DNA of 64,000 nucleotides, from IMG/VR virus record IMGVR_UViG_3300021958_000045, positions 1 to 64,000 of that record; one strand, 5' to 3'. The position numbers and the translations under genes are program-made. Below the pieces are notes generated by a model. That model had not been told where the DNA came from and searched no databases. It saw only the letters and a program-made list of their open reading frames with translations. This document shows, one piece after another, positions 673 through 49,567 of the stretch. The DNA comes from a virus (Duplodnaviria > Caudoviricetes). Each line of letters opens with the position of its first letter. Position 1 is the first letter of the stretch.

Positions 673-698
673 TTTATTCTGTATATCATTTAATACAA

Positions 699-2529: not shown

Positions 2530-2762
2530 TGAATCAATATGACGTATATAAAGTTAGTAGGCAATTCTTTGCTTCGGGGTGTAAGCATTTAAATTTTAAA
2601 GAATGCGAAAAATTATGGAATGATTTTAATTCTTCAATCCAGGGGCCTGGATGCACAAGCTGCAAAAGAAGAAGAATGAGAAATAAATATTCCAGAATAT
2701 TAAATGAATTAATGACGAACTTAGAGTATCAAGAAGTTTTTCGATCGCCCAGCGCTGATTAA
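2529..2762 (+). CDS. Small Cys-containing basic hypothetical protein
   Basis: 77-aa ORF coupled to the upstream stop (TAATG); contains GCTSCKRRRMR. Confidence 0.6.
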   Translation: MNQYDVYKVSRQFFASGCKHLNFKECEKLWNDFNSSIQGPGCTSCKRRRMRNKYSRILNELMTNLEYQEVFRSPSAD

Positions 2763-2763
2763 A

Positions 2764-23000: not shown

Positions 23001-26000
23001 AAGTCGGTTACTAAATTTGGATCAAACAATGTTACAGTATCTGATAAAATTTTTGAAACAGCATCTGCAGTATAATTATGCTTTACTAATTTTTCATTTG
23101 GTTTTTCGTTTTTTTGTAGAGTGCCTGCTTGATATAAATCTCTATTTGCTAAAATTCTTGTATCCATTTGTTCTGCGAGTCTATAAGCGCTTCGCATTAT
23201 TTCGCCTTGCTCGATGGCTAATTGGTAATAACGATCTCTTTCTGCTTGGTCATAAAATGTATGAAAAGCTTCTTTGCTAGAATAGTCAACCCCCAACCTT
23301 TTTCCTTTATTAACAAAACTGCCTAAATAATATTTATCTAATAACTGCCTTGCAGATTCAGCCTTGCTCTTTGCAAGATTTATAATTTCTTTCTGTCGTT
23401 CTAGGAGTTCTTCAGAACTCATTGCATATTTAGTATTATTAATTTCATCTGGATCAAAATTTAAATAATCTCCCAAACCTACTCGAGCAGTATAAGCCGC
23501 AGCTCCTAAAGGAGCGCCGACAGCAAATCCAAGCAAAGGATTCTTGCTTTCAAATGCTAATCCTGTACCAAACCCTAATGCATAATTGCCTCCAGCCCTT
23601 AAATGCCCCTCCATGCCAGAATAATCCATACGCGCTTTCTCTCCCCTTGCAACGAAAAATTCTGCCGCAGTCACTCCAGCAAACCTTCTGGCTGCAGTCT
23701 TCAACGCGGCACCTTTAGTCATTGCTGCTGCGGTGGATGTACCCATTCTAGCCCTTGTTCCAACAATAGCTGCGTCGGCTAAATTTGCACTAAGTACACC
23801 CGCAACTTCTGATCCAGTAAATTGAGAAAGTCCTACAGATTCTGCGAGGTCATTTCCTTCACCAACTTTGCCTTGAGCAAATCCTTTGCCGTAAGATCTT
23901 AAAAAAGCTCTTTCTTCGGAATTATCTCCTAATCCTTTTGCTGAATATCCGCTCAAGTTATTTTCATGCGCATACTGCGTGGCAGCTTCTCTACTTTCAA
24001 AAAACATTGGTTGAGCTCTAGCATCTTCCAGGTTATCCTGGCTTGCCATAGTATATTCAGATAAACCAGGAATACCTTCTTCCCCGCCAGCTAAACCTTC
24101 TAAATTTCTTCTAGCGATTTTTGCAGCAATATTTTTTCTAGCTAGTTCAGTTGCATTTTTATCGCCTTCAACTTTACTCTCGGCCATTTGCTTCAAGCCA
24201 ATTTTTGTCAAAGCTTTATCGTGCCAAGATGCTTCTTCTGGCGCATCAAGCAGGCCAGCTTGTTTCTTTTTGTTAAGTAAAGTTTTTTGTTGTTGTATTA
24301 AATCAGTGCCAGCCGTAGATAAATAATTCCCTGTACCTACAGATACATTATCTTTATTCCGAACTTGTTTTTCTAAAACAAAATGTTTTGGCTCACTTCC
24401 AATCATGTTTGCAGCAGAATCTAAAACACTCATTCCAGTTTCTGTTTGAAATGCAAGAATACCTGCAGCAGGAAGTAATGTACCAACAGTTGCACCCCTT
24501 AAAGGTCCACCTCCATAATTCATTGCACTATCAAATGCTTGACCAGCTCTTTGTAGATTTACTGCATTGGCTTGTCTGTTAATTTCTTTAGCTCTCAACA
24601 GACTTCCTTCTTTCGTCAAAGTATATCTTCCAGGGTTTCCATCTATGTCTCCAGGAAGAACCCCTCTCATAAATTTTTCTTGCTCCATTCTAATTTTTTC
24701 GCTAATTGACTCTTTTTTGAAATCGCCTAGTTCAGAAGTCGAAGTCTCGCTTATAGAGCGACTACTTAGCTCTGCTCTTTTTTGGATATTACTGAAAGCC
24801 TCGCTTCTTTTCTTTTCAAATTCATCTACAGAATAAGTTTTAATACTTCCATCTGGCTCTTGATAATCAACAACTCTTGTTGATTCTCTTAAACCTTCTG
24901 CAACCTTGTCAAGATCTAGCGCTCGATAATCATTACCTTTTCTTGTGATAGTTTTTGAAAATTCTTCAGGAACATTAATGTGTTTACCGCTAGTTTCAGA
25001 TTCAATCAAACGTCTTTGAAACACGTTGGAAGATGTAAGACTTTTTGGAGCAGAAATTTGTTTATCAAGTAAAGCTCCTTTTACTGCGGTAGTTCCTTGA
25101 TTAACTTTTTTCATAACTTCTCCTGCTTTAAGAAATTTAATGTTTTCTCCCGCAGTTATTCTCTTCATCATATGATCCTTTGGATTTAAAGACCTTCTTA
25201 AAGCATGAGCTTCTTTAATATCTTTACTGCCAACATATGGAGATAGTTTCGGATCATACGTAATAATATCTTTTCCGTTTTGCTCGACCCTCATTCTTCC
25301 TGTTAATTGGTCTAAAACTTTATCCTCGTATTCAGTCCAACCAGATTGAGATCTGTTAAATTTTTCTGTTTGTTTAAAAGTTTGTGTCAAAGATTCGCTA
25401 GTATCAAAAGCAATTGGCTTACTACCTATATTCATTTCCATTGCTAGTTTTGCTTCGGCTTTACGACTTTGCTCAGCTCTATGATTTTCTTCTGCCATTT
25501 GTTTAGCAATTCCCTCTGGATGCTTTTTGGCTTGTTCGGCTCTCCATGCAGAAATTCGCTCTCTAACTGTCCCCCATTTTTCGGCAGTCCAGTCTTTTGC
25601 AGAGCCAGCAATAGGAACTATTGATGATACTCCATTCCAGATTCCTTTGCCTGCTTGCATTGTATTTTTCCATCCTTTTGTTTCTACTAAATAATCAATT
25701 AATCGTTTATGAGCTTTTCCTTTTTCAAGAAGTCTTTCTGATGTTGCTGCTTTTTCAGGATCTGCTAAATATTCTTCTTTTGATTTTTTCCAGTTATCGT
25801 CTACTTCTTCTACTTCCTCTATTGTTTGCTGGACAATATTATCATCTACGCTTGCAACTTCTCGAACTTTTGCTTCAGTTTCTGCACCCGTTTCTCTAAC
25901 AGCTGCAGCTTGTTCGACTGGATCTGCTTTGGCTTCTTCTAACGCGTCAAGTTCTTCAATTGCCTCTTCCGAACGACGAGACCTAACAGGTGAATCTTCT

Positions 26001-29000
26001 CTTTTTGTTAATTTCACTCCAACTTCATTTGATGCAGTTCGAACACTTTGCTGATTAAAACTAGCCAGCTGATTATTTGCTCTTGTAACATTTTCTCTGT
26101 CAAAATTAGAAGATCTGCCTTGGCTGACTCTGAGATTGTCTATTTGTAATAACTCAGACATTCTTTGCAAATCTTCTTGTGTGGCTGCATTACCTAGAGA
26201 AGTAAGCCTATCAAACTCAGCTTTTTCAACTAACCTGTCATTTATTAATTGTTGTTGTTTTTCAGCTATTATATTCCTAGATGTTTCTATAGTATTTTCT
26301 GGGTCAAGAGATTGAGATAAAGTAGATAGTCTTTGATCGGGCGCTTTTTGATCTAAATCTCCATCTAAAGAATCCATTGTAGACTGAAGGCTTGCAAGCT
26401 CTTCGGCAGTCATCCTGGTTTTAGTTAAATCTATTCCATCTTCTCCTACGTCACTAGTAGAAAGCGGCTGCCTTCCAGCTTCTAATTCTTGAGCGGCAAG
26501 CTCTAAAGATGCAGGGTTTACAATTCCATTTCCCTTTGAAGCGGCCAAAGAAGATAATTTACCTTCGTTTTCAAGTATTCTTGAAGCGTTAACCTGAGAT
26601 GCCAAATCAGCATTTTTAAGATTATTTAAAACGGCCTCAGGATCTTTTGGAATCATTGGTACTGTTTTACCTCTGATTGCTGTTTGAGAAAATAGTTCGC
26701 CTTTTTGAATCTTTTGAAATATTTTATCTATTCCACCTTTTTTTAAATTCTCTATAGCTTTTCCATCTAACTTATTTCCTGCAGGATCCATTAAGTCCAT
26801 AAAGCTAACTAGTCTTGCAACATTAATATCACTCTTATGAAGGTTTTGAGTTTTTGCTTGTCTTAAAAAGTCTTCTCCCATCCCCATACCGACAAACCTA
26901 TCCAAGTTTATCAAATTTTCTCTCATACGATCTCCTAATCCGAATCCTTTACCTTGAGAATCTAAACCAATAACTCTCAGTTCTCTATCAACTAAAGATT
27001 CTGCTAAATTTTTATCAAAACCTGCAGTATTTTCTGGATCTAAAAATAAAACTTTAGAAATTTCTTCTCTTAATTTTACAAAATCTCCATCCAGATCAAA
27101 TGCAGCTGGACCTAATTTTTTTGCCATTGCTTGGTTAGTGACATCAAGCTTAGAAACTCCTTCAGCTCCTCCTCCCGTAAATACGCTCAAACCTGCGTCT
27201 GCTATAAGTTCCTTGAATTGCCTATTAATAAACAAATCTTGTCTTTCCATAAGCTTTGGATCTAATGCATTCAAGTGTTCATTTTTATTACGAGTCAAAA
27301 TGCGTAAATCTTCTTCAATAATTCCTCGTTTATTAGAAGGAATATTTGGATTATCTATTAATTGTTGTAACCTTTGTTTTTCACTGAGGAATTTTTTATT
27401 CAAATCTGCTTCATTAAAGTTTGCTGGAAGCCTCAATCTTTTTTGTAATTCTAAAGGAGCTTTTTGCCTAATTTCTCTAAGGACAAGTTGTTTTTGAAGT
27501 TCGTTTGCTCTACGATTAATATTTGAATTTGTTTTAACTTTATCTAAAGCAGTTTCGGTAGGAGGCAAAGGAACACTTTTTCTGGAATCAATATTATCGA
27601 ACATTCTTTGCAAATGAATAGGATCTCCAGGCATTGTTCTTGTTGCTCGATCTACAAATTCTGGATTATTAATTAATTCATCAATTTGATTCTCTGCTTT
27701 TGCCGCGCTTGTTACTTTGCTAATTTCAAATTGTTTATCTGTTAATCTAGAAGCCCTTGATTTTACATCTGCATTTTCCAGTAGCAAAGTTTTATTTTCT
27801 TGTCCAGTCTCTATAGAGTTAACTAAATCAGGATTATTATTTGCCCACTGTTGTAAAACATTCATTTCTTCTACGCTTAAATCGCTTCCAGATTTTAATT
27901 TATTAGAAATTTTAGAAACTTGTGCTTGATTAAGAACATCAGCCTGACTTGCGGATACCGCAAGTTCTCCTGTATTTGCTGGAGCTAATTGAAGCTGAGC
28001 TTGTGCAGTTTGAACTCCTGCAACTTTTTGAGCACCTACCGCTCTTCCATTTGCATCATATATTACAGGTTTGGTTTCTACCGTTGGAGGATGAATGATT
28101 CCCGTAGAGTCCATAGTTCCAATTAAAGTTCCATCTGAAGCAAGAATATCAAAATCTGACAAGACAGTGCTTGGGCTTTTCGAAGGTACAATCCCAGCCT
28201 GCCTAAAACTAACGTTACCGTGCTCTGGGAAAAGTTGACTCTTAGCTCTCCTTATTCTTTCCAAAAGAGGGGGATCAATAGTTTCAGCTCTTAAACTAAA
28301 TAATCCGTCTACTCCTTCGGGCGAGGTAGAGCCGCCTATCACTTGCCTAAGTATTGATTGTTTTTTACTTTCTTCTGGCGCGTCTTTAATTGGTGAAACC
28401 GAACCAGAAATATTCATAGCTCTTTGTTCTATTAACTCTTCTGCCATTTCAACGACTGGAGACTTTTGGCTTCTATGAGAAACTACAGAAGTTGTCCAAG
28501 GATTCCTGGGCGTAGATGCTGGCCGTTGAAACAAAGATTCACTAGTGGCGCTTGTAGAAGTGGTTACAGATCTTTCATTAGAAAGCTTTTGTAATTTTGA
28601 AAAAGTTGTTTCTTCGCTAGCAATATTTTCGCCAGATGCAAGATCTTGCATTTGTTGCGTCCGCACTATGTTGTTTTGTCTTTCTACCTCTTCAATTTCA
28701 GACCCTTTGTAACGTCCTACAAATTTTAATGCAGTTTTCTTTATTTTGTCCCATGAAGATAATTCTCGTAATTCAGGGTTATTATATGTTAACACATCTT
28801 TAAATTCTGAACCTTCCCCAATCGCCATGCTTGTTCGAGTTCTACCTAAACCCTTATCAATTTCCGCTTCTTGAATTTTTCTTACTCGCTCAATTTCTTC
28901 TTGTCTCTGCTGAGCTTTTTGTTCTTCAAGAGTCCTACGAGCTTTTTGTTCAAGCTCTTTTTGTCTTTGCCGTTGTTTTTTCTGTCTATTTTTTCTAATT

Positions 29001-32000
29001 CTATTTGCTTGGATAGCTCGTTGAATTTTTTCAGTTACTGAACGTTCCCTTTGAAGATAATTCTCTTTTTGTTTGTGAACTCTATCTGCACCAGTGTCAA
29101 CTTCTCCATCAACTTTTTCGGCTAATATAGACTTAACGTCTTCATTTGTCTCTAAGGGGTTTGTAGGAGTATCTCCACTGTAAGTTCGGACTCCTTCATT
29201 TTCTATTTGACTAAGAATCTCTTCTTCTTTTACTGGGTTTATTCCCTGTTTTTGTTCCGTGCTTCTGCCTGTTAAAATTCTTAAGGTTTGTAATTGGCGC
29301 TTTAACCAAGTTCCAGCCTGTCTAACAAAACCTCCTTCTGCAGATTTCCCTATTTCTTTTGATGCTTGTTCGGTTGCATTTTCCGCAGCTCGTGCAGTAA
29401 TAGCCTCTTGACTTCTAATATCGTCAGCTAGATCTTTAGGTATAATATGGCTCTCGAGCCCTTTCATATTTTGCTTTGCAGCTTCAGTTAAAGTTCCAAC
29501 TTTTGGAGCGCTATCTCCCAATGTTTTTGTTGCCCTAACGTTTGGCCCTGCGTCTGATCTAGCTTTCGGACCACCTCTTTCTACTGCTCTTTGAGTTGCT
29601 TTAGCGGCTCTTTGTCTGCGCATTGTTTCTTCTGAATCTGCATCCTGATTTGCCACCGCTTGTCTTATAGCTCTATTTTCTTCTCCAGTAAAAAGTTCAA
29701 GTTCGTCTATATCTGGATTGGTAGAATCAATTTGAGAAATTATATACTTACCACTTTGGAAATCTCTTGGTTTTGCTTTTGTTGCTTCTTCTACTGGAAC
29801 AACTTGCCCATCTTTATTTCCTCCCATATATTCAATTACCATAGGTCTAAAAATTTGAGGTTCACCGATTTCTGGATCCATAAACTTCGCTTGATCAAAA
29901 TCAAAATTCTCAACTCCGATTTTAGAAAATATCTGTTGATTTTCTTCCTTACGCATTTCCTCTATAAACGCACGTTGAAGTTTACTTAAGCCTCCTTGAG
30001 AATTTCCTTGTAGCCCATGAACTTGTTTTAATAAAGCAGCTCCCGAACTATTCCAATTTGCTACTGCAGAAGGCTTAATTGATTCAGGTTCTAAATCCCA
30101 AATATCCATATCTTCTCCAAGAGCCCTTGCTGTATTAATTATTCTTCTAGCTCCTTTTTGAGGCGCCGCAAAGTTAGGAACGTAAGGATTTCTTTCGAGG
30201 TAGCCTCGCATAAATTTAGTTTTATCGTCAACGTCTTCATCTAATGTTCCGTGAGATGCAAAGGCTCCTTCTTGTGGGCCGAGTTTATGAACGCCTCTAA
30301 TTTTATTAATATAATTTGTTGGGGCTACGCCACCTTCATCAATTTTATTAGTAACAACAGGCCCATCATAAGAACTAAAATATTGAGATTTTCCACCTGG
30401 AACTGTCAACTGTATATTGCTAATAGGATCCATTACCCCTTTGTTTTCTAGAGCGGTTATTTCTCTAGAGATTGATTCGCTTGCTCCTGGCCAATATTTA
30501 GCAACCCTCAAGGCGGCTCCGCCAGTAAATGTTTTGCCAGCGAGTTTTTGAGCCATTGTTTGTTTTGGGGCGTAAGTGGTTTCTCCCCAAACACTTTCTG
30601 AATATACTTCTTGCTCTTTTGTTTTTTGAGAATCTTTTCTTTTTGAAATAATGTTTTGATGTAAATTATTTCTTAATATTTTTTCGTTCTTGACTAAGTT
30701 TTCAGCTCTTTGTTCCGCGCTAGGACTAATAAATTCTTTTTGTTTTTGTATTCTTAATCCAGTTTTGTGAGTATTTTGAATTTTGGTTAAATAATTGCTT
30801 TCTGCTACAGAGCCATCATCAACTCTATTGGTAATTACGGAATCAATAATACTTTTAGGCCCGATCTCAGATAATTCTTGATCGGGGACTGTGAATTGAA
30901 TTTCATTAATTGGATTTTTAACGCCTCGATCTTTAAGAGTTTTTATTTCTTTTTGTATAGTTTCTTTTGCTTCTGGATAATAATTTGCAACTCTTAAGGC
31001 TGCGCCTGCGTTATAAGTATCTCCGATGCTAGATTGAGCCCTTGCAGATTTCCAACTGCTTTTCTGGTTTGCGATGGAATAATTATTAGCAATCTGGTTT
31101 GCAGAAGCATTTTGGCTTGATCGCCTTACGGTTGATATAGCCTGAGTTTGAGATGAAGAATTATCGATCATTCCTGTCATACTAAACTCTGAATCTCTAG
31201 GAGATAAATCATGAACGTTTTCAATTTTATTGAGATAACTTCTAGGAGTAACATTACCTTCATCTACAGTATTAGTAACAACTGCCCCTTGGTATTGAAA
31301 ATTTGCCAAAGAATTAGAAGATGCAGGAATAGTGAGTTGAACATTATTTAAGGCATTTGTTATACCCTTCTTTTCTAAAGCTTCAACCTCTCTATAAATA
31401 GAGTCTATTGCTCCTGGATAATAGTTGGCAACCTGCAAAGCTCTGCCTCCTGTAAAAGTTTTTCCAGCAAATTGCTCAAAACCTCTTGATTCTTTTAATT
31501 TATCTTCATTTAAAGATTCTTTTAAACCCCTTATAGGACTTTTCTTTCGGTCTCTTGTTGAAGAATTTCTTGCAAAATTTGGTACGCCCCCTCGACTTGG
31601 AGCGGGCTGTGGAGGTTCTGTAGAATTAGCTCCTCCATGAATTGTAATGTTGCCACTAGTATTTATTTTTGTACTACCGCCAATATTCACATTAGCTCCA
31701 TCGATTGCAATATTTTGAATTTTTTGTCGAGCTTCGTCTTGTTGCTTAGAAGCTTTTGTTCTTTGTTCTACTTTTTCAGTATCTGCTACTTTAATATTTC
31801 TAATAGCTTTAACTATTTCTTCTGCAGATATTCCTTGTTCTGGTTGCAAGGTTTTAGATAATGTTTGAATACCTTCATCAATGCTAGAAAGTAGTCTAAT
31901 TTCTACCCCATTATCCCCTAATTGATCTGCAATACTTGTCAAGTCGTTGAATCCCATAGTTCTAGGATCAAGGCCTAATTCTTCTAAATCGATATTTAAA

Positions 32001-35000
32001 GCCTCTGCAGTACTTTGAAGAGTTTTTCTGGTTAATTCTGATCGATCCGAGGGAGTAGATGCAAGCGCTCCTTGTTGAGCAGTTAATTGTTTAATCATAT
32101 AGCTCACCATTTTTTGAGTGCCATCAGGTAAATCTTGTTCAACTAAAGCTTTTTTCATGCTATTTACTACGTCTCCCATATCAATATTAGCATCTGCTTT
32201 AGCGTCAAAACCTGTTTCTGTTTCGACTCCCAACATCATTAATATTCTATTGACATTACCAATTGCATTTTGCATATTGGCTTGTTGTCTCATATCATTC
32301 AACTCTGGACTTTTCCCAAACAAACCTTCCATCAACCCTACCATATCTTGCGTTGCTCTGGCCTGAACATCTAGATCTAATTGAGTTTCAGGCTCAAAGC
32401 TTTGACCAAAAGCGAACTGTTCCATAATTTCGCCTTCTCTTGCTGTAACATCCAACTGCGTACTTTCTAAATTTTTTCTAGCTTGAAGCAAGTCCTCTCT
32501 CGCAGCAATTTCATTACCTAATTTTAAAAGAGCTATTTGTTGATTTGCTTTTTCATTTAATTGTCGAACAGAATCAATTAATTCTTGTTCTTCTTGGGTT
32601 CTTTCATCAAAATCTATACGTTCTATCGCCGAAACTATATCATCAGCCATAAATCTTCCATCTCCTTGCTCTAGCTCGCTAGACTTTAAATACATCTTAT
32701 TTAAAACATCAGCCAACTTACCAGAAAAAACAGAGCCATCCTCTCCTTCAAAATCCTCCATTTTTGTGTCTTTCATTAATTGATTCACAAATTTAGAAAC
32801 TTCAAATTCTGTTCCTGCAGCAGTTTCTGCATTTATTCTGGTAACCGAAAATTCTTCTTGGGCTGACCTAGCTTCATTTGGAGTCATATAATTCATGCCA
32901 GTCATTATAGACAGCTCTGAATTAAATTGCTTTTCAGCAATATCAAATGCTTTTGTGATATTCGAATTTAATTCTGAAATACTTCTGCTGACAGCAGTAG
33001 AAAGATTAACAATTGTTGATTTTAAATTGCCCAAAGCACTAGAAGTCTTTCCAACTGCTTTGCCAGCTTCAATAGATTCTTTTCTCAATTTTAATTGCTC
33101 TTTTATACCAACTGTAAAATCTACCATACCTTCATCAGGAATATTATCTACAATTTGGTCAAATAAAGTTCTGGTTTCTTCATCAAGAGTGCTAGAAAAT
33201 TCTTTTATAGTTGACCTTATATCTTCTGCAGAAAACTCCTCAAAATTAATTTTGCTTAATTTTTTTGATAAGCTAGTAACCTGCTCTTCTGCAAGTTCTA
33301 GCCCCTGAACAGACTGCATGCCAATATTTCTAATTTCTCCTCGGGCTTCATCTTTTAGCTCTCCCTTTTCTCCTCCAAAAAAAGGAACAAAATCTGGCAA
33401 CTGAGTTGGACCGAATCCAAACGGTAAAACTCCTTCCCTGTTTTCATTTGCGGCTTGAGCTTTGATAGTTAACTGTCCTAATTGATTAACCTTAAGTGCT
33501 GAAGCGGAAAACTTCTCTAAAGCTGTTGACATTTTTTGAACGTCTCCATTTGCAGTAACTAACGCGCTTCTCAAATCATCGATTGCGCTACTGCCAGAAG
33601 GAAAACTTTCTATTTGTTTCTGCAAAGATTTAATTGCCTTTGTGATATTTTCTGGGTCTCCACCTTCAATTGCAGAATTTAGCCTAGATTGCGCGGAGAC
33701 TACTTGCGTTGCACTTTCAATGGCTTTTCCATTTATTTGTATATTACGTTCAATTTGATCTCCTTGTACTTTCAAACTCTTTGAATACTGATCTAACACT
33801 CCGTTTAAAGCCCCGACTGACGCAGCAAGAGCAACCCACTTTTTCTTGTCTGTGATCATTGATGTAATCGCAGCGATTTGAAGAGCGTCGCCAGCAGCAT
33901 CTGCTGCGTAACCTCCAGCAGTACCCGTTTGTCCTTCAATGCCCCCAAACATCATTTGGCCCATGAATATAGTATTCATCATGCCTCCCCCGCCACCAAA
34001 CATACCTCCTCCAGTAGGAGTTGGAATTGCAGCGTCGGCAGCCTTGCTACCTCCTCTTTTAAACATTTTAGGTATAAATCTACCAATAAAATTTGGTACG
34101 CTAAAAGTAGAATGAGGAACGTATCCATTTGCAACTAAACCATGCTTTTGAGGATTAATCCCTTGAGATATTGAGCGCGAAATTCCTTGACCCAAACCTC
34201 TTGGTTCGTCAATTGTATTATAAACTCCAACGCCTCCAGGATTACTTTCGTTTTTTAGTCTATTACTCTGTCCAATCCTAATCTTGTGCATTGGTATTCC
34301 AGCTTGGCTCTCTCTTTTAATTGCTGCGCCTAAAGCATCATTTCCGCGCGAAGCTGAATTTACATTTAATGCGAAATTCGGAACGTACCCATTGGACAAG
34401 CGTTCTTTAGAAATTTCTTTTCCTTGAGAATATATAGATTCAATAATTTCAGTTTTGCTATCTTTTTCTTTATTGTCGTTTTTTAAATATTTAAATTCTC
34501 TATCAGAAGGTTTTTGTTTTTCTGGAGTATAACCTTGAAAGTATTTTTGAATAACTTGTTTATTCTTTCTTTTCTCGATAGATTCTTTTCTTCTATTTAA
34601 AACATTTTCTTTTGTACTAGATTCATTTTCTTGAAAATTGTCTCTTAACCTATACAGAGTTGAGAAATTATCTTCGCGACCAAAAACTCTATTTTCTTGA
34701 TTAGTTGAGTTAGAGCTAACTTTATTAGATTCTAAAGAAAATCCTTGAGAGAATACTTCCGAAGAAGCTTGTTGGTTATCCTTAGAGACCATGCCTTGAG
34801 AGGAACTTTTGGAATCGGTAGACACATCCTTAGAGACCATGCCTTGAGAGGAGCTTTTGGAATCGGTAGACACATCCTTAGAGACCATGCCCTGAGAGAA
34901 GCTTTTGGAATCGGTAGACACATCCTTAGAGACCATGCCTTGAGAGAAGCTTTGAAAACCATTAATAAAGTCTGATTGTTTAGACTTAATCGATTCTGCA

Positions 35001-38000
35001 AACGAGCTATTAGAGCTTGATTCTTTTTCTCCGTAACTAATATAGCTATTATTAATAGTAGACTCAATTTTCTTTTCTTTTGCTTGAGAAGAGTCTTGTC
35101 TTTTAATTACAGACTGAGTATCGGCAGATTTATTGTATGAGTTAACCGATTTAGAATCACTTGCATTATCAATTTTTTGAGAAATCAAACCTTGAGACAA
35201 AGAAATAAATTCATCTTGCTTTGATAAATCTTTTTCTTGTTCTTGTACAATTTTTGATTCTACATTTTTATCTCTTGTTTGTAAGTTTATTTTTTCGCTC
35301 TGCTTGCCTAACGCATAACTTTGTTGAGTTACATTTCGATCAACTAATTTTGGTATTTTTTCTTGAGATAAGTTTTTATTAATTATAAAGTTTGGAACTA
35401 TACCAGAATAAAAATTTTGATTAGATTTATAATAATTTTCTAATTCTTCTCCTGACCTCATGTAGCCAGGAATTTTTTCATGAGCTTGCTGACCTTGAGC
35501 GGTTTGTTTTCCTTTAATTGCTGCGCCTCTTAAAGCATTTGCAGAAGGCATTGCTCGAAATCTATTCATAGTTGCTTGTTTATTGGTCGCCGCCTTTTGT
35601 TTGTCATACTTTTCGAAATCAGCCTTTTCTTTTGCAACCTGCCCAGATAGCAAACCTTGATAATCTAATTCTTTAAGTATTTTATCTGCCATGCTTGCTT
35701 TAATATCTCCAGACTGAGCATTAGCTTTAAAATCTCCTATAGAACCATGGCTAGAAGGCCAATTAAAAAACTTTCTCAACTGGTCTGTAGGACCTCTAAC
35801 ATCAAAGTCTCCTCCTCCTGCATTAACTGGAATATTACTAAAAGCAGCATTTGCTGCTGCCTCAAAAGCGTTGCCAGCCATAGCGGTCAATGTACCTTCA
35901 TTAAAATGTTTTTGTACAACTCTATCAATAATCGAAGAATCTTGCATTCTGATTTCTTGTTCGCCAAAAGCTCTAACAAAATTTTCAGAATGAGCTTTAA
36001 CTATAGTCTTAACATCTCTTTCTACAAGATCTCCAATTTTTGCTATCCTATCCGCCTCTTTTGGAATCTTGGGATTTATGCCTTTTGAATTCCAGCCGAC
36101 TAAAAATTGACTTTGGTACTTTTTTGCATAAGGGCCGCTACCTCTAACTGTAGACTGAGGAGCTCCTCCTCCTCTTTGAGGAAACAATAAAGAATAATCG
36201 TAAGTAGTAAATGGCCTCAAATCTATAACATTATCTGGGTCATCTTGATATGGTTTATTTTTTTGCCTACCCGCTTTGCCTGCTGCTGGCGCAAAATTAG
36301 GAATAATTCCATCATTAAAAATTTGCATAACCTCATGTTCGCGAGAGCTAATTTGTGATGTCTTGTTTTGATTCCATCCAATATCAGACTGAGGAACAAT
36401 AGACTGCATAGACCTACCATAAAAATCATATTCTTTTCTGCCATATTCCTTCTTATTAAATTGCATGAGGGCAGGATCATTTCTTCTTCCGCTAACATTT
36501 AAAAACAATCCTCCGACTTGCTCAGCCCATTTTTGTATTTGGCCAGAAGCCATAGCTTGTTTAAATTTTTCTACTTCAGGGTATATACCCTTCTTTGGAT
36601 TAGCTCCTCGATTTAACAACTTAAGAATTTTCTTTTTATTAAATACATTTTTCTCTGAAACCTGAGTAGAAAGTATATTATCTTTTGCGGGTTTATTTAA
36701 TCCCCCTCCAGCAAATTCTTTAGCTATTGTTTCTGAAGTACTGAATGATGTAGCCCCAGAAGGAGCGACATTGTCTAACTCTCCAATATCCCTGCGCCCA
36801 GAAAGCGGCCCACTAACATGAGACTTCACAAAATTCTGAATAATATTAATTACATCTTGAGGGGTTTGCGCTCCTTTAAAGCTTGGCATATTTTTACCAA
36901 TATTAGGTCTGTCTAGAGTTGGATTCTTTTGCCCTCTATACAAAGTTAAATTTGCATAATTTGGTACAGTTCCTGCGCTTACATTTTCCAACTGTCTAAT
37001 TTCAAATGGGTCAACGTTATAACCATAACCTCTAGAAAGATCAGGAAAATCTACTTTTAATTTTTCTTGTATATATTTATTTAACGATCTAAATTCTCTT
37101 GAATTAAAAAACTGTCTAAAATCTTCTTTTTGCGCTTCTGTCTTTGCCCTAAATAATCCATCCGCCCGAGACTCAGATTTTAGCCTTGTGTTTATTACTC
37201 CTCCCCTAGCCCCCATTGACATTAAATTAAACTCAGACAATGCCCTACTTATTTCAGCAAATTCTTCGTTTGAGTAATCTTTAATTTTTGATTTGCGCAG
37301 TGTATTTGGAGAGTACTTTCTGAAAATTGAAAAGTTTGGAACTGCACCGTATGCTAACTGAGGCGGCGAAGGTTCTGCCATTGGCGTTATTCCGCTAGCA
37401 TATGACTTAATTAAAGTTTGAAACTCTCTTGCTCTTTCTTTTCCTACTTTGGTATGAGATGGAGGTAACACCATTCCGCCGCTAGGTTTAAAAGGTAAGC
37501 TAAATGCTTTTTGTACATCTGCTCCTGTCGAATAAAACTTTTCTTTATTATTAACAACTACTCGCTCTTTCTTTCCATTAATCTCTAGTTTTTTAACTTG
37601 AGTATCTTTATATCCAACGTTTTGACCATATAACTGAGAAGCTTGACCAGCTTCTTTCATTCGGTCAGATTCAATACTAAAGTTGGGAATAAACCCAGTT
37701 GCTAAAGTTTCAGTTTCTTGCGAAGTAACATCTGAAATAGTTCCGCCTGCAAAACTCTTAGAGTCTGCAGAAGAACTGCTAGAACTGACACTTTTAGAAA
37801 CCATACCTTCTGCAAAAGTCTTGGAACTCGTAGAAGACTCGTCAACAGAAGTAAAACTATTTACATCTTCAGACCTCGAAGAATCCTTAAAGTTTTCTTT
37901 ATATAATTGAGTTTGATAATCAGAATCACGAACTCGGTCTTTTTGCCTTGTAAAATTTGGAACAATGCCATGGCTTGCTATTTTAACTGATTGAGGGTCA

Positions 38001-41000
38001 TTCTCATATTGTTTCCTGAGAGAAATTAATTCTTTTTCAGAGTAACCTTTTTTGATCAACATTTCAAGATCAGACTTTGGCCCCTTATTTTTAATATAAT
38101 TTTCTAAAAATAATTTATCATGCCAGCTTCTAGATGTAATTGTTTTACTCTTAAATCCATGTTTTGCTAGCATGTTTTGAGCGGCAGATCTCTCCCCATT
38201 AGTTGCACCTCTTTTTGCAAGCTCTCTAATTGCCTTAATGTTAACAAAGTTTGGGACTGTTTCTGGAGCAGTAACAGAGAAATTGGGTAAAACCAACTCT
38301 TCATTTGTATTGGTTCTTTTTTGTTGTTTGGCGAACATGTATTCATTAAACTCTTCTTCAAGAGAATTTAAATCTTGTGTTGATACAGTTTTTCCAGTTG
38401 GAGAAATAATTTTATCTTTTTGGACGGTGAATTTTTCCTGAAATAATCTTTGTATATCTTGATCTTCTTTTCTAATTGCCTCAGATTTAGCTTTATTAAA
38501 TTCTGTACTCTTTAATTGCTCTTGCTTCTTGAAAATTTCAGATTCAATTTGTTTAACTTTATCTGGGTTTTTGCCTGGGTTCGATGGTCGACTTAATTGG
38601 AATTTTTCTTTTTGAAGTGTTGTAATTTCTTTTTGTATTTTGTCATACTCAGTTTTATTAAATTTTTGCGCAAATTCCTTTGATTCGTATACTATGTCTC
38701 TTGAACCCTTACCTGTTGGGCCCATAAGTGGATTTGTAACCTTTGATAATTGAGATGTTAAACGATTTAAAATTTTAACGTCTTGAGGAATATTACTACC
38801 AACTCCATATGCATTACCAACAGAGAGATTTAATTTAGTTACTTTATCAGAAATGCTTTTATAATTTTTATTATGTATATTGTCTTTAATAAATTTATTA
38901 AATGCGGGCGAAGCGAAATTAGGTATATGCCCATCTGACATAATAGCTAGACCTTTCATCTCTGCAAACTCTTGATATAATTTACTTATTTGTTCTTCTG
39001 AAATTGACTCTGAACCACGAGCTTTCTTTACAAATTTTAATATATCTTCAGCACTGTCTACGTTTTTTGTAGTAAATTTTTCTGCGGATTTTGCGAGGGC
39101 TTTTTGGGTATCTGTAGAAGTAAAAATTGTTTTTGAAACATTATCAAAGCTATCAGGATTGTATAGTCTTTTTAGGTCCGCTCCAGTTTTACCCATTGGG
39201 AAGGACTGATAATCTTCTGCCTTAAGAGATTGCACGTCTTTTATATTTACCTGACTAGGAACCTCTTCCCTCTTATTCTTCCAAGAGGTTAGTCGATCAT
39301 AATTTCTATTGCCCGAAGAATTTTGGGCGACCTGAGTAGACTTAACTACGGCACCCATGATTTCAGGATAACCTTTTTGTGCAGCAAATTGGGCAAACTC
39401 TTGAAGCTTAACATCGGAATCAAAAGAAATCTTATCTTTAGTTAGTTTATTTTGAGGTTTATGCCCAGAGATGAAATGCATTTTAGGGTTCTTACCCCAC
39501 TGCTTAAACTTTGCATCAGGAAACTGCATCTTTGCAAGTTCCAAATCTTTTTCCATAACATACTCTTTACCACTCTTGGTTTGTTTAATATTAAACATTG
39601 ATGGAATTCTTGCAAAATTAGGAATTAATCCTTGAGAATAATTTTCTAACTGAGGAACTTCTCCAGAAGCTCTTCTCCTCAACATCTTACCTCTTGGCGT
39701 AAATTTATTTATTCTTTTTAAAATATCTTCCCGATGCTTCTTAAAGTATTCAATTCCTTCTTTTTTTGTTTTAAATTCTCCGCTAATTTGAGCTTCTTCT
39801 AAATGCTTTAATACAGAACCCATTTGAGGCCCTGGCTCTACTAATTTTTCTTGTATTAAATCTCGACCTTGTACAATTGGCTTAGGTGGCTCTTTGTATA
39901 TTCCGCTTTCTTTTGCAATTGAGCTCATTCTACTAATATTCTTTTCATCGACTTGAGTAAATTTTCTTGCAGTTACATCGTCAGATAAATTTTTGCCCAT
40001 GTCAGATTCAAGCAATATTTGAAACTTACTTAAGTCTCCTACATCCTTAGTTAACCTATTAATAGATTTCTGCGTCAAATTCTGAGGAAAATTTGAGTGA
40101 AACATATGTCTTTCAACAAAAGGCGTTAAGTCTTTAGATAATTTACTCGCTTCTCCTTGAGACATAATTCTACCCAAGAAACTTTTCATTGGCGCGACTC
40201 CAGCCTTTTCGTGACCGTAAGAAGTTATCGAGCCATCTTTGTTTATTTGTGTGTTTGTAACTTTGCCAAAATCATGCGTTAAAGCAGAAAACATCAATTT
40301 GCTTCTTTCTTTTTCTGGAAGCATTTGCCAATTTTTATTATTGGCCATTGCATTAGTTACAAGTTTTGTGTGATTAAATACATCTCCTTCGGGGTGATGC
40401 TTGGGAGACTGGGGAACTCCCTGCAATTTATCAATTTCAGGAAAATGCTTTATCCATCCAGACTCTTTTAGAAATTGCAAACCTTTTTCTGGATTGGTAG
40501 ATTTAGATGCCCATTTCATCCATTCTTCTCTAACTCTTTCTTTTGGAAGATCTTTAAATTGTCCAACCATTTCTCGAGAATAGTTGATCAATTCTTTATC
40601 TGCAGAAAGATTAAACCTTCCAGCCATCTGCATAGATCTTAATACCCTCAAAGGGTCTTCTTTAAATCTAGGAGACGTAGGCTTCATGATGCCGTCTTGT
40701 AAATCCTGCCTCCCTCCCAAGGGGTCAATAAATTTCTTTGTGAGAGGGTCGTAAGAAATAGAATTGATTGTTAAATCTCTTCTTTGTGCAGCTTCTTTGC
40801 GCCCCATATTAGGATCTACTTCAACCTCAAAACCTCTATGTCCAGCACCTACTTTCTTTTCTCTTCTTGGCATCGAGAACTCAAAATCTTGCCCCCCGCT
40901 TTTAGCTTTGAATACTCCAAAGTCTTTGCCAACTAAGCCTTCTTTAGTTAAAGATGGAGACAATATTTTTTGCAATTTTTCTTGTTCTAAACCAAAAACC

Positions 41001-44000
41001 TCAACATCCCAATCTTTAGGAAATTTGCCCATTAAAAAGTCTCGAGGAGCTCCGCCTACAATCTGAGCACTACCTCCAGCAGCTTGAATTTCTTTTGATA
41101 CTTTTTCAAGATATCTGGGGACGGGCATAGTTTCTGCCGCAAAGTTAGGGACAAGGTCTCTTTGTGTATTTTCTGGTTGAGCAAAGTTGGGAACCAAACC
41201 TTCAGCATTTCCACTACCTCTTCCAGAATGCTGGCCACTAAATTGATAATGAGTTCCAGTTATATTTTCATTTCTAAGGTTACGAATAGCTTCTATATTT
41301 TCAATTGCGTCATCGATCAGATCGTACTTACCCCCTTGCTTTTTCCAAATTCTCTCTAATAGAATCGCTTTCTTTTCTGCAGGCTTTAAATTCCTATAAC
41401 CAGGAACCCTTCCTCCTTTTGCTTTAATTATTTTTCCAGAACCATCGCTAGCAATTTTAATATTATTAAACATATCTGCGGTGGTCATAATCTTTTCAGG
41501 ATTAATTCCCCATTTTTTTAATTTTTCTTCAATAAATGGCACAGACTGTTTTGCTCGAGCAGTTAAGACAGTGACCGCTTGACCCTGAAGTTCTTTTGCT
41601 AACGGGGTAGGTTTAGCCAATCCTGCAGATTCAGCTTGAAACAAATCTTTAGACTTTACATTCTTAGAATAAGTGCCTAGTGTTTCGTCAAAATCATAAA
41701 ATTTTCTAAAGCCTGCGTTTCTTTTGAGGGCAAAGTTGGGAACGAGTCCTTCAGATAATTTTGATACAGTTCTCTCTAATGTGCCAGCATCTTTTGTAAA
41801 ATTAGGAACAGCTCCTTCTGAATATTTTTTTAGAGATTTGCCTGGAGCTTGTTTTTTCTGACTCTCTTGAAGCTTGACAATCTTTTGCCAAATTTGGTTT
41901 GCTTCGCCATTTAACTGGCTAATCTTTGGATCTATTTCAGCTCTGGGCCTCCCAGATTGAGACAGTTGCTTTGCTTGTCCTAGTTTGCCCTGCCACATCT
42001 TTAAAAGCCTTGATCGATCTGACTGCATATCAACAGGCTTAATAAAATTAGGCACTGCTTCTTGAGAATTTAAATAACTAGCGTAATTGGGAACAACTCC
42101 TTCTGAATATTTCTTAGCAGACTTGCTAGATATTTGTTTCTTTTGTTTCTCTTGGAGGCCGACAATCCTTTGCCAGATTTGATTTGCTTCGCCATTTAGT
42201 TGACTAATCTTGGGATCTATTTCGGCTCTAGGTTTTCCAGATTGAGACAGTTGCTTTGCTTGTTCCAGTTTACCTTGCCACATCTTTAAAAGCCTTGGTC
42301 GATCAGACTGCATGTCTACAGGTTTAATAAAATTAGGAACTACTCCCTCAGAATAAAAGCCTGCCTTTTCATCTCTATTAAAATTCTTATCCCCCTTTTT
42401 TAATATTTTTGTATATGCATCCATGGCAAAATATTCGCCAGATGCAGTTCCACTTAAAATGGAATTTTTTGTATTAAACCCTAAATTTGCTTCTGACCAA
42501 CTATTAAATGACTCTATACCATTTTCTTTAACCCATTTACTAACTTTAGTTTTTAAAGATTTAATATTTTTAAATTCGATTTCATCATTTCCAATCTGAA
42601 AAGTTCCCGAGGTTGACATTCCTGGCTTGATTCTTTGTTTTAATTGTGGGAATGCATTGATTATGGTTTCCCAAGGAGTTTTGCCTGAAGAAGCACGAAT
42701 TTGGTCAAAGGTACTGTGAATCTCTTTATTTTTCCATCTTCTTTTTCCTGTAAAGCCTGCGATTTTATCAAAATTTCTATTAGCTCCCCCCTTCATAGAA
42801 GGATCGTTTACATCTGCTCCTTTAGCTCTTTCTGAATATAAAATGTCAGTCTTGTTTTCGTAATCGTACTCTCCCTTGCCATAAGTAAATCTAGTTGTTG
42901 TTCCAGTTTTTTTATCAGTTACTTGTATAATGGGTAATTGACCATTCCATTCATTAGTAGTCTTCATACCGTCGAACCCTTTAATATCTTTTTGGGCTCT
43001 TGCAAGATTTTTCTCTCTAATTTTTTTAAGTAATTCTGGCTTGCCCCAAGTAGACACAAAATTTGGTATACTTTTAGCAGCATCTGGAATTATTCCTTGT
43101 GCAGCCCTCTTTTTACCACCAGCAGCAATAGCTTTACCTCGTCCAGCTACTGTTCCAGCGGCAGCCTTCTTTTGCTTTTCAAAATCTTTATATTGTTTTA
43201 ATTTTTGATAACCTCCCCTAGAATCAATAATTTTTTTAATTCCACTGCCAATATTTTTCTTGCTTGATGAAACTTTAGCATCTACATTTTTGCCTTTTCT
43301 TGAATCTAAATTAAATGCAGTTGTTAAGTTTTTTTGAAATTCAGGACCAGGAAAATCCCATCCAGCGGTTCCAGGATCGTTTTTTACAACTGAATTTTTA
43401 ATATAATTTAAAGTTGCTTCAAATACCCTTCCTGTGAATTGAGGGCCTGCAGACTTATCCAAGTAATCGCTTAATGGGCCAGAACCTTTAACCTTTCCTC
43501 TTGGCATAATATCTCTAGCTACATCTCCTATGGCAGAAGTCATATGCTTATCAACAATACTATGGAAGCTTGAGCCTTGTGATTGAGCCAGTCTACCGAT
43601 AGTGAAGTTTCGTGCTTCAAATTTTGTGCCTTTAAAAGCTGGAGGAACTGCGCCATCAAACACTGAAGATGCTGCTACAGTTTGATTTTTTCCTGTTTCT
43701 GATTTGCCCGCTTCTGCTGTTATAATACCCTGTCCAGCTGCATTTAATTTAATTACCTGATTGTTGGTTGCTTTAAAATTTGGTACATAACCAGTAGAGT
43801 AAAAGCTTTTGGTTCCATAGTCAGCGGCAGAATAAAATTTTTCAATACCATTGTCATAATTGAATCTTTGCATCATATCTTGATTTAATATTGCAGATGC
43901 GCCTGAACCCATAAAGTTTTCAACAATTACTTCATCTGTATTTGCAACGATATCTTGCTTTTGAGTTTTTGTTTTTTGAAAGTTTTTAATTAATACAGGG

Positions 44001-45810: not shown

Positions 45811-46896
45811 CTAAGATTCATCTAAGAAATCCATGATTGATAACGTACCTTTTTTCTTTCCTTGTTTGTCTTTTGCCAAATTGAATATGTCCTTACCTTG
45901 TCTTTCAACTCCCATTTTTTGATAATCCTCTTTATCCGCACCGACCATTGAGAATGATTTTTCTGAATTATTTCCTTTTTCCATAAGCTTTCTTGCTTTT
46001 TCTCCTTTTTCTGCCCACTCAAGGAGTTTGTCAGGATCTCTATGAAAATGCTTTGGTGGGGAAGTATGTTTAATAATCGATCTTAAAACTCTCGCATAGC
46101 TTAATAAATTAAGTTGATAAAAACTAAGTTCATGAACAGCTTTACCAAAAAATTCCACTGGAGATTCTTCAATTAAAGAGAAATACGAAGTAAAAAATGG
46201 AGAAACAGATAAGTCCTTAATGGCTTCGATATCTAATTCTGCCATTGAAGTATTATAACATTTAATAATTAGAGCAATATCTTCGTGAGAAAGATAATCT
46301 TGATCCTCTGAAGCAAATAAAGGAGAAGAACATAAATCATCTTCATATAAAGAATAAATCATAGTATAACTATTCATTTGAACATTTGCGTAGGCTTCGC
46401 AAGTAGTACCAATATGTTTTTGTCTTTTCGCTTCTTTTTCTTTTAATTTTTTTTCAACTTGATCTATACTTTTTTGAACAGTTGCGACTTGACGATCTAA
46501 AGTAAGTTTTAATTTTGTTTGCTCTAAATTTTTAATATACTCTTTTTGGGATGCAACCCATTTTTCATCTTCTTCTGTCCACAATCCACTATCATACATT
46601 CTTTCTAAAGCTTCTTTTTTTGTGGGAATTCCCCCTGACTTAGCTTTATCAAAATACTCTTCATATTTTTCATCTAGATGAATTTGATCTTGCAAAGAAA
46701 AGTGCTTTGCATAACCTTTGATTATTTTTCTAGAAGAATTATACAATACACTACTCTTTGGAGGTTCAATTTCAACTATCGAAGAACCTTTAATTAAAGA
46801 ATTTAAAACTTTCCTGAGCCTAATTTCTTTAAGCTCTTGAATTTCATCTATGCGTTTATCTTCTTGCTCTTTATCTTTTAAAGCAGTTTTTGCCAT
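45811..46896 (-). CDS. Putative tail assembly chaperone-like protein (pre-TMP)
   Basis: Directly upstream of the TMP; helical/coiled-coil composition. Assignment by position. Confidence 0.5.
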   Translation of the reverse strand: MAKTALKDKEQEDKRIDEIQELKEIRLRKVLNSLIKGSSIVEIEPPKSSVLYNSSRKIIKGYAKHFSLQDQIHLDEKYEEYFDKAKSGGIPTKKEALERMYDSGLWTEEDEKWVASQKEYIKNLEQTKLKLTLDRQVATVQKSIDQVEKKLKEKEAKRQKHIGTTCEAYANVQMNSYTMIYSLYEDDLCSSPLFASEDQDYLSHEDIALIIKCYNTSMAELDIEAIKDLSVSPFFTSYFSLIEESPVEFFGKAVHELSFYQLNLLSYARVLRSIIKHTSPPKHFHRDPDKLLEWAEKGEKARKLMEKGNNSEKSFSMVGADKEDYQKMGVERQGKDIFNLAKDKQGKKKGTLSIMDFLDES

Positions 46897-46912: not shown

Positions 46913-47779
46913 TTAAGAATCAATTTCTTCTAGCAAGCGATCAAAATCTTCTTGATTTGAAACTCCGCTCATATACCAAATGGTAGTAAGAGAACTAAGC
47001 TTATCAATTGATCGAAGGTAAACTTGATCGTTTTGTTCATCGAGCTCTAAATAAGACTGGTACTTATCATCATAAGTTTCTCCAGGAAATAAAGGAATCG
47101 TTTCTGCATCATCTTGATCTCCATAAGAAACATGAGTTAGGTTTAGCAAATACCATGTGATGGTTTTATTTCTAGCTTTAATGTCTGCAGTATGATCAAA
47201 CATACTAGCTTGAACTGCTTCAAAATCTGTAAGTTCTTTTCTGATAATACCAAGCTCCTCTACAGCAACTCTTAACCTTTCATTTTCGTCATTACTTCTT
47301 TCATCTTCAGTTTTAAGGCTAAATCTTTGCACTGCTTGTTGCTTTTCATAAAGCCTTACATATAATTGAGAATAGCGCTGTTTTTCTTCTTCGGTTAAAG
47401 ATCCGCCGACATCAAGATGTTGTTTTGCTAACATAGCTCTTGTAAGCAATCCCATTTTAATGTATTTGTTGAGCCAAATACTATAAAACATATCTCCATC
47501 CTCTAATTGGGTTCGAGTAGGCTTTCGCAAGACAACCCTAACTGGCTGCTCCTCAACTACGTCGCGCATTTCGGTAGCAATTTTTTTCTCCTTAACCTTG
47601 CGCTTTTCGGTAACGAGAACTTTTTCCATTTTCCCCGTTTTTTTATTCTTTCTTCTTTTTTCTACTTCAACTTCTTTTTCAACCTCGACTTCCTTCTCAA
47701 CTTCAACTTCTTTTTGAGAATTTACATCAAGAGAAATTGAGAACGAATATAATTCTTTGTTAATTGCAGTGACAGCCAT
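46913..47779 (-). CDS. Putative tail assembly chaperone
   Basis: Lies between the tube genes and the TMP; helical; N-terminal EVEVEK x3 repeat. Assignment by position. Confidence 0.45.
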   Translation of the reverse strand: MAVTAINKELYSFSISLDVNSQKEVEVEKEVEVEKEVEVEKRRKNKKTGKMEKVLVTEKRKVKEKKIATEMRDVVEEQPVRVVLRKPTRTQLEDGDMFYSIWLNKYIKMGLLTRAMLAKQHLDVGGSLTEEEKQRYSQLYVRLYEKQQAVQRFSLKTEDERSNDENERLRVAVEELGIIRKELTDFEAVQASMFDHTADIKARNKTITWYLLNLTHVSYGDQDDAETIPLFPGETYDDKYQSYLELDEQNDQVYLRSIDKLSSLTTIWYMSGVSNQEDFDRLLEEIDS

Positions 47780-49482: not shown

Positions 49483-49492
49483 AAACAATATA

Positions 49493-49497
49493 TACAC
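49493..49497 (-). promoter_or_regulatory. GTGTA motif upstream of the 49482 gene
   Basis: 10 nt before the ATG, immediately after the tube terminator. Confidence 0.55.
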
Positions 49498-49524
49498 AAA
49501 AAAACCCCTGCCTTTCGGCAGGGG
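49498..49524 (-). terminator. Rho-independent terminator after the tail tube gene
   Basis: Minus strand reads CCCCTGCC-GAAA-GGCAGGGG-TTTTTTT (perfect 8-bp stem plus U-tract). Confidence 0.92.
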
Positions 49525-49567
49525 CTTATGTTTGTTAGATTTTCTTAACTTAAATCAATTACACGAA

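Follow-up and report, generated by a model that had tools for sequence, protein, structure and literature searches.

The question raised by this locus is what role a short peptide ending in Pro-Asn-Phe plays when it recurs at junction after junction along a single, giant tape measure protein. The protein is encoded by the open reading frame (ORF) 14087..45775 on the minus strand of a 64,000-nucleotide (nt) stretch (hereafter, the window) at the start of a viral contig of 80 kb with an estimated completeness of 57% (IMG/VR record IMGVR_UViG_3300021958_000045). With 10,562 amino acids (aa), the product, referred to here as the ruler, is the tape measure protein of an uncultured aquatic phage. 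An earlier note on this DNA described an array of effector cassettes delimited by the peptide, and proposed that the peptide is a protease site, a loading tag or the joint at which cassettes are exchanged. We find that the junction peptide is under selection at the protein level, is confined to the ruler polypeptide, and lies at the module junctions in a single family of tape measure proteins of the TP901-1 type.

A junction peptide conserved in one family of tape measure proteins

The pattern [VIL]-P-N-[FY] occurs 24 times in the ruler, compared with 0.23 occurrences expected from its composition, and PNF alone occurs 22 times against 0.83 expected. As listed in Table 1, 23 of the 24 copies fall within residues 664-5199, and one lies at residue 8824. 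The earlier claim of at least 23 copies holds in full, in that each of the 23 coordinates agrees to within 1 nt with the lower boundary of a 12-nt motif, and the two variants reported with them, IPSF and GFVPNR, are both real. A further degenerate copy is VPDY; near the C-terminus of each of the two close relatives of the ruler, a site in a similar position and with similar flanks reads VPNY. Where motifs stand in tandem, the spacer peptides between them are short (11-14 aa). The 24 motifs are encoded by 18 different 12-nt strings, which places their conservation at the protein level, as had been concluded before from the varied codons.

The ruler carries the N-terminal PhageMin_Tail domain (PF10145; PHROG 4211) by which TP901-1-type tape measure proteins are recognized. 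The PF10145 match covers residues 122-308 and scores 103.4 bits, where 33.2 is the cut-off, and 16 tape-measure PHROGs match the first ~450 residues. In proteins of this type the length of the ruler sets that of the tail; a continuous helix of 10,562 residues would measure ~1.6 µm.

A motif profile of 30 columns, built from 44 motif instances, was searched against 1.84 billion representative proteins. At E<=1e-3 it matched 551 proteins, of which 89 also passed E<=1e-10; nearly all of the 551 are tape measure proteins of 2,000-5,000 aa with 4-14 matched stretches each. The family analyses were performed with the best 150 of the 551 matches and three giants (153 proteins in total), of which 130 possess the same N-terminal domain and the remainder look like fragments. 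The consensus logo of the family reads [AS]-x-G-[FY]-[IV]-P-N-F-A, with 1,135 sites in the 150 representatives compared with 10.5 expected; over 1,127 sites, Pro and Asn are conserved at 100%, Phe at 92% and Gly at 91%. The constraint extends over seven contiguous positions, with the aromatic residue followed by Ala or Ser. Relatives are encoded on at least 388 IMG/VR contigs, and at 50% identity the family forms at least 551 clusters, none of them from cultured phages.

A strict form of the motif, G-[FYHLM]-[IVL]-P-N-[FY], was sought in 93 loci translated in six frames (3.9 million codons). All 413 occurrences lie inside the ruler ORF, and neither separate cargo proteins nor orphan cassettes bearing the motif were found in any of the six frames. 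Because the strict motif is confined to the ruler ORF, a loading tag used by separate cargo proteins is unlikely.

Close relatives of the ruler are encoded on three IMG/VR contigs, and two of these relatives, of 10,437 and 8,166 aa, were read whole and have 23 and 13 motifs, respectively. The cassette half of the ruler is 80-94% identical, cassette by cassette, to that of the 10,437-aa relative, and the C-terminal half, which diverges faster, is 44-51% identical. In the 8,166-aa relative, whole cassettes are missing, with the breaks at motifs; residues 1146-2507 of the window's ruler, for example, correspond to its residues 1057-1206. Nine family loci lie in contigs of metagenome-assembled genomes labelled Proteobacteria, Neomarinimicrobiota, Halobacteriovorax, Crocinitomicaceae and Pseudomonadales, for which the binning is uncertain; we read these loci as aquatic. 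Neither the cassette region of the window's ruler nor its X module (described below) has a match in cultured phages, and a typical family ruler matches cultured phages through the N-terminal domain alone. Among the examples examined, the window's ruler is the most extreme, with 10,562 aa and 23 junctions.

Layout, exchange and predicted cargo of the cassettes

The basic layout of the family is seen in the members with four motifs. In these, the N-terminal domain (~540 aa), the A module (82 aa), the B module (~230-290 aa), the X module (75 aa) and the C-terminal ruler (800-1,700 aa) follow one another, with motifs 1 to 4 at the four successive borders. The A and X modules have the residue pattern RE..AG ... 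NP.GL.V.N.RDEP in common and look like distantly related copies of a single small domain, which has no family in Pfam. The X module is present in most family members and is always flanked by motifs, and modules of the A/X type bracket the cassette array in most of the family. The giants keep this frame, with cassettes added between the outer motifs (~20 extra cassettes in the window's ruler). Nor is the motif special to cargo: minimal members, in which cargo is almost absent, have four copies of it flanking the two small conserved modules.

For the analysis of exchange, the 153 proteins were cut at the motif and the pieces were clustered, which resulted in 103 clusters covering 822 of the 1,030 cassettes. 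The same cassette cluster recurs at many positions and with many different neighbours; the 40 members of cluster 1, for example, have 19 different left and 14 different right neighbours. In an all-versus-all BLAST comparison of whole proteins, the alignments most often end at motif positions +3/+4 (F, A) and begin at -4/-2 ([AS], G). When the first motif is left out and every pair is taken once, 55-59% of the end-points lie within -6..+8 of a motif, compared with 8% of random points, an excess that is partly inherent, since local alignment runs through any common motif. Homology stops where the next cassette begins. Judging from these alignments, the motif is the joint of cassette exchange, at which modules are gained, lost and replaced among related phages; the tail thus probably brings a changeable set of enzymes into the host. 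The ends of the homology blocks in the 153 proteins bear out the motif-delimited array and the recombination joint of the earlier note, together with the association of the motif with module boundaries in homologous tape measure proteins. A systematic study of mosaicism could not confirm genuine mosaics among rulers (bioRxiv 10.1101/2022.12.27.521992); the present family provides a clear and mappable case, in which the almost invariant junction peptide defines the exchange unit.

The X module was modelled together with both flanking motifs in AlphaFold2 from an alignment of 54 sequences. The core of the module (residues 40-100) adopts an alpha-beta-beta-alpha arrangement with a predicted local distance difference test (pLDDT) value of ~90; the N-terminal motif falls in blocks with values of 55-59, and the C-terminal motif has a value of 34. 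The low values of the motifs beside a well-folded core indicate that the motif lies outside the neighbouring fold, and neither motif was docked onto the X module in cis. The motif therefore behaves as a short linear motif, located in the flexible linkers that join the modules. No usable match to the fold of the X module was obtained, the best being E=1.1 in a Foldseek search of the PDB and Z=2.8 with VIA-align wide.

The ruler contains no cysteine in 10,562 aa, compared with 1.26% in the other ORFs of the phage, and the family average is 0.007%. The absence of cysteine looks like a general trait of rulers that the embedded enzymes have also adopted, and it would fit storage and passage in a non-native state.

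The ruler holds ~22 cassettes, one of which is a predicted CCA-adding enzyme. The matches listed in Table 1 confirm this CCA-adding/poly(A) polymerase-type nucleotidyltransferase as the sole firmly identified cargo of the window's ruler. The match is nearly full length (phrog_2244 positions 7-379 of 392 over residues 1572-1992, with the PDB match reaching residue 2017), and both matches lie inside the flanking motifs at residues 1542 and 2051. Of the domain names given in the earlier note, that of the nucleotidyltransferase stands and the others are less secure. The HAD identity of the cassette at residues 1349-1531 is weak, with a PHROG match as its source; neither this identity nor that of the cassette called ART is supported by Pfam, NCBIfam or PDB. 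"Nuclease" describes the B-type cassettes by a residue pattern that they have in common with the family cassette (G..FE.A ... FDF ... ADFK), which resembles that of PD-(D/E)xK nucleases; the resemblance is confirmed by neither profile nor fold. The claim that the motif falls at domain edges and never inside them is upheld where it can be tested, namely for the CCA enzyme and the core of the X module. Cassettes of the GNAT and ART-PolyVal (PF18760) types occur in family members, and neither was found in the window's ruler with Pfam.

The cassette catalogue also includes putative peptidases. The HExxH signature occurs 31 times in the 150 family representatives against 1 expected, and is restricted to a few cassette clusters, mainly one of 198 aa in 8 proteins; these cassettes are probably zincin peptidases.

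Table 1. Positions of the ruler domains, cassettes, junction motifs and upstream genes in the window (HMM, hidden Markov model)
Feature	Residues (aa)	Coordinates	Strand	Peptide, match or remark
N-terminal tape-measure domain	44-450	44426..45646	(-)	PF10145 E=1.9e-29; phrog_4211 E=6.2e-54
Motif-delimited cassette array, 23 junction motifs	664-5202	30170..43786	(-)	
B-type cassette, PD-(D/E)xK-like residue pattern	668-906	43058..43774	(-)	family B-cassette HMM E=4.1e-14; no Pfam match
A-type cassette (82 aa), copy 1	1150-1231	42083..42328	(-)	X/A HMM match, weak
A-type cassette (82 aa), copy 2	1245-1326	41798..42043	(-)	X/A HMM match, weak; tandem duplicate of copy 1, 78% identical
HAD-like cassette, weak	1349-1531	41183..41731	(-)	phrog_1238 E=4.7e-4; PF11019 E=0.11
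Class II CCA-adding/poly(A) polymerase-type nucleotidyltransferase cassette	1546-2054	39614..41140	(-)	PF01743 2e-19; PF13735 9e-8; phrog_2244 1.8e-67; PDB 3wfo 4e-20
Cassette earlier called ART	2941-3161	36293..36955	(-)	no Pfam, NCBIfam or PDB match
Second B-type cassette, PD-(D/E)xK-like pattern	3162-3463	35387..36292	(-)	B-cassette HMM E=2.1e-21
X module, 75-aa alpha-beta-beta-alpha domain	3802-3896	34088..34372	(-)	
C-terminal part (5,360 aa), presumed ruler part		14090..30169	(-)	single motif; unannotated
Junction motif 1	664	43775..43786	(-)	GYVPNF
Junction motif 2	903	43058..43069	(-)	KSIPNF
Junction motif 3	1146	42329..42340	(-)	GVVPNF
Junction motif 4	1228	42083..42094	(-)	GVVPNY
Junction motif 5	1241	42044..42055	(-)	EAVPNF; tandem with 4
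Junction motif 6	1323	41798..41809	(-)	GAVPNF
Junction motif 7	1345	41732..41743	(-)	GLVPNF
Junction motif 8	1528	41183..41194	(-)	GLVPNF
Junction motif 9	1542	41141..41152	(-)	DLVPNF; tandem with 8
Junction motif 10	2051	39614..39625	(-)	GLIPNF
Junction motif 11	2284	38915..38926	(-)	GHIPNF
Junction motif 12	2496	38279..38290	(-)	LVLPNF
Junction motif 13	2507	38246..38257	(-)	ETVPNF; tandem with 12
Junction motif 14	2605	37952..37963	(-)	GIVPNF
Junction motif 15	2696	37679..37690	(-)	GFIPNF
Junction motif 16	2812	37331..37342	(-)	GAVPNF
Junction motif 17	2937	36956..36967	(-)	GTVPNY
Junction motif 18	3158	36293..36304	(-)	GIIPNF
Junction motif 19	3460	35387..35398	(-)	GIVPNF
Junction motif 20	3798	34373..34384	(-)	GYVPNF
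Junction motif 21	3893	34088..34099	(-)	FSVPNF; degenerate GYVPH before
Junction motif 22	4731	31574..31585	(-)	GGVPNF
Junction motif 23	5199	30170..30181	(-)	PYVPNF
Isolated motif 24, C-terminal half	8824	19295..19306	(-)	FSLPNF; absent from the earlier list
Degenerate copy	570-573	44057..44068	(-)	IPSF
Degenerate copy	9391-9394	17594..17605	(-)	VPDY
Degenerate copy	9829-9832	16280..16291	(-)	GFVPNR
361-aa all-helical protein, directly upstream		45811..46896	(-)	in 85/92 family loci
288-aa protein, second gene upstream		46913..47779	(-)	in 80/92 family loci

Readings of the junction peptide

Cleavage at the motif is the reading that we place first, tentatively. Judging from what is known of tape measure proteins, the ruler would be delivered into the host with the DNA, and the modules would pass with it through the tail tube in a non-native, cysteine-free state, after which one conserved factor would read the motif as a processing site. 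The cut may lie beside the invariant Asn-Phe, with Phe or Tyr at P1 and a small residue at P1', or at the Asn itself; it would free the modules from ruler parts inserted in the membrane, and the freed enzymes, such as the tRNA nucleotidyltransferase, could act in the cytoplasm. Candidate cutters are a host protease, the bracketing A/X modules and a neighbouring gene product. Cleavage is favoured because the predicted cargo is directed to the cytoplasm while the ends of the ruler would stay in the envelope, and because the site resembles that of a polyprotein, with short spacers between tandem copies. For polyvalent proteins, it has likewise been argued that processing is needed since the domains have different targets (Iyer et al. 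2017, PMC5512222). The more far-reaching proposal, in which the peptide is a processing or handling code and the ruler a programmable polyprotein whose unrelated enzymes, up to ~20 in number, are kept unfolded in the tail lumen, injected before the DNA and freed at a universal nine-residue site, is rather unlikely as a whole; if true, it would amount to an undescribed protein-injection device with a ready-made grammar of cargo slots for engineering.

Several observations weigh against cleavage. No peptidase was detected in the window's ruler, which has no HExxH and no Cys; HExxH is absent also from its two close relatives, and the family cassettes that carry it are found in a minority of the members. 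The 515-aa product of 55803..57350, called a protease in the earlier note, has no protease match in Pfam or PHROG, nor has any other of the 20 neighbouring genes, and the models of trypsin-like proteases (PF13365) and HK97-type prohead proteases (PF04586) matched nothing in five records (the contig, three incomplete relatives and a complete relative of 178 kb), although the lineage is so divergent that the absence of a protease does not follow. In the minimal rulers, cuts at the four motifs would sever the N-terminal domain from the ruler, which is sensible only after ejection. The invariant Pro and Asn, in a family whose other proteins are ~30% identical, would fit a binding pocket equally well, and the ruler of the unrelated Bacillus phage Stills is also cysteine-free, which means that this trait is not specific. 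The prohead protease named before as a possible cutter is unlikely, since the tails of tailed phages assemble separately from the prohead; the HK97-type model matched nothing in the five records.

Nearly as likely as cleavage is that the motif serves docking or registration during tail assembly, with no cutting. Each copy would bind a conserved phage partner, for which the candidates are the chaperone-like 361-aa and 288-aa proteins encoded upstream, the inside of the tube wall and, in a ruler trimer, the corresponding motif of the other chains, and the binding would hold the chains in register and let tube polymerization pass the non-helical cargo. The predicted character of the motif (disordered, short, linear, and hydrophobic/aromatic) suits such a role, as do the four copies found on either side of the A and X modules even where a ruler has little cargo, the presence of the two genes at the chaperone position in 80-85 of the 92 family loci, the all-helical model of the 361-aa protein, whose best (non-significant) viral matches are tail assembly chaperones, and the searches in which no protease was found. 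However, the long C-terminal ruler, where chaperones and tube must also act, is without the motif apart from the isolated copy 24, in the AlphaFold model neither motif was docked on the X module in cis, and the upstream genes lack a frameshift overlap of the G/GT type. It is quite improbable that the motif is a passive joint with no reader, that is, a hinge or insulator for independent folding or extension that is kept mainly because recombinants formed there are viable. The mapping of module exchange to the motif and the suitability of Gly and Pro for a turn agree with this idea, but a passive hinge is hard to accept because Pro and Asn are invariant; the conservation of these residues, of Phe and of Gly is far beyond the needs of a hinge and is not seen in ordinary linkers, and the variety of codons (18 strings at 24 sites) means that DNA homology is not the driver. 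The least probable reading is a recombination signal like that of polymorphic toxins, in which the motif would mark the swapping-in of stored orphan cassettes, as VENN does in CdiA. A conserved peptide does precede variable modules, with exchange breakpoints there, but the proposal fails because there are no orphan cassettes (in the 93 loci, 0 of the 413 strict motifs lie outside the ruler ORF); nor is the motif DNA conserved, and no immunity genes were seen.

Related systems and genes around the ruler

Among the closest comparisons are polyvalent proteins (PMC5512222), in which many unrelated effector-type domains are likewise joined in one virion-associated polypeptide and processing after delivery has been proposed. 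The predicted content of the ruler falls within the range of 2-15 or more unrelated effector domains per polypeptide that defines these proteins, and of their signature domains (ART-PolyVal, GNAT and LPD), ART-PolyVal (PF18760) and GNAT occur in ruler family members. In contrast, tape measure proteins are never mentioned in that study and its phage examples are head-associated, the embedded metallopeptidase proposed there, a frequent though not universal feature, is absent from the window's ruler, and no conserved junction peptide is described. Tape measure proteins are usually seen as rulers or DNA conduits and polyvalent effectors as head cargo; the present family joins both, and more than 100 candidate early-acting phage effectors can be catalogued simply by their flanking motifs.

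That a ruler tolerates globular or enzymatic inserts is seen also in other tape measure proteins, with an N-terminal domain of the same family (23-28% identity over residues 43-484). The tape measure protein of phage Stills (KP696448.1) contains inserts annotated as LysM and lysozyme; no PNF site is present in it. The ruler of mycobacteriophage TM4 has an Rpf-like motif, according to Piuri and Hatfull 2006 as cited in PMC13277306. These rulers differ from the present family in having one or two inserts directed to the cell wall, rather than up to 23 junctions and predicted cytoplasm-directed enzymes. In polymorphic toxins, a short conserved peptide (VENN of CdiA) also borders exchanged variable modules (Zhang et al. 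2012, PMC3482391), but there the exchange concerns one C-terminal tip, with orphan cassettes and immunity genes, whereas the rulers have many modules in internal arrays, lack orphan cassettes and have joints whose DNA is not conserved. Contractile injection systems (with the signal peptide of Afp18, bioRxiv 10.1101/2023.11.13.566157, and tape-measure-like effectors, PMC13277306) are comparable in storing cargo in the lumen of the tail tube, in ejection and in the use of short disordered cargo signals; these signals are single, N-terminal and carried by separate cargo, whereas the ruler motif recurs within the polypeptide and is found on no separate protein. A search of the literature found no published link between VPNF or PNF and phage rulers.

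Viral polyproteins offer another parallel. The sites of the potyvirus NIa and picornavirus 3C proteases are repeated at the product borders, and the cognate protease is encoded in the polyprotein. The ruler resembles them, at the level of sequence, in a 6-9-residue site repeated at each module border and in small spacer peptides; unlike them, it was not found to encode a protease of its own.

The gene directly upstream of the ruler encodes a possible tail assembly chaperone and putative partner of the motif. Its 361-aa product is modelled with confidence as an all-helical protein (pLDDT 84), for which the best match in BFVD is a tail assembly chaperone (E=0.04, TM 0.20) and the best in the PDB are 14-3-3 proteins (E=0.17, TM 0.17-0.26), both below significance. 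Profile searches with homologues (PDB, ESM Atlas, Pfam) gave a name neither to this protein nor to the 288-aa protein encoded next to it. The two genes occupy the place where chaperone genes are usually found, yet they far exceed those of G/GT chaperones in size, and a frameshift of the G/GT type between them was not found, the downstream frame being closed 3 nt before the ATG.

TerL is encoded upstream of the ruler ORF, on the same strand and in the same order, and most other neighbours of the ruler match no known family in Pfam or PHROG. Three genes upstream of the ruler, a different 288-aa protein (48631..49497) has a weak match to Phage_tube_2 (E=5.5e-5, below the cut-off). It is preceded in the same region (48631..50884) by a conserved 438-aa protein, a candidate sheath or major tail protein, in which a lone GNLPNF lies within a glycine-rich loop.

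A phage cyclophilin (699..1550) was considered as a reader of the invariant Pro and was rejected, since it is shared with the nearest relative alone; its absence from the complete 178-kb family genome means that it is not a general partner. The ORF that overlaps this cyclophilin-like gene (699..2194 region) had earlier been called a prolyl hydroxylase.

In one family ruler (L055, IMG/VR contig 3300023174_000315), the ORF ends 35 aa past the fourth motif, at 1,012 aa, which reflects a split gene or, alternatively, an error in the sequencing where the array meets the ruler part. The C-terminal 5,360 aa of the window's ruler, in which no domain is recognizable, are 3-6 times longer than the corresponding part of ordinary family members, and internal repeats are present at residues 4767-5180 and 9854-10186.

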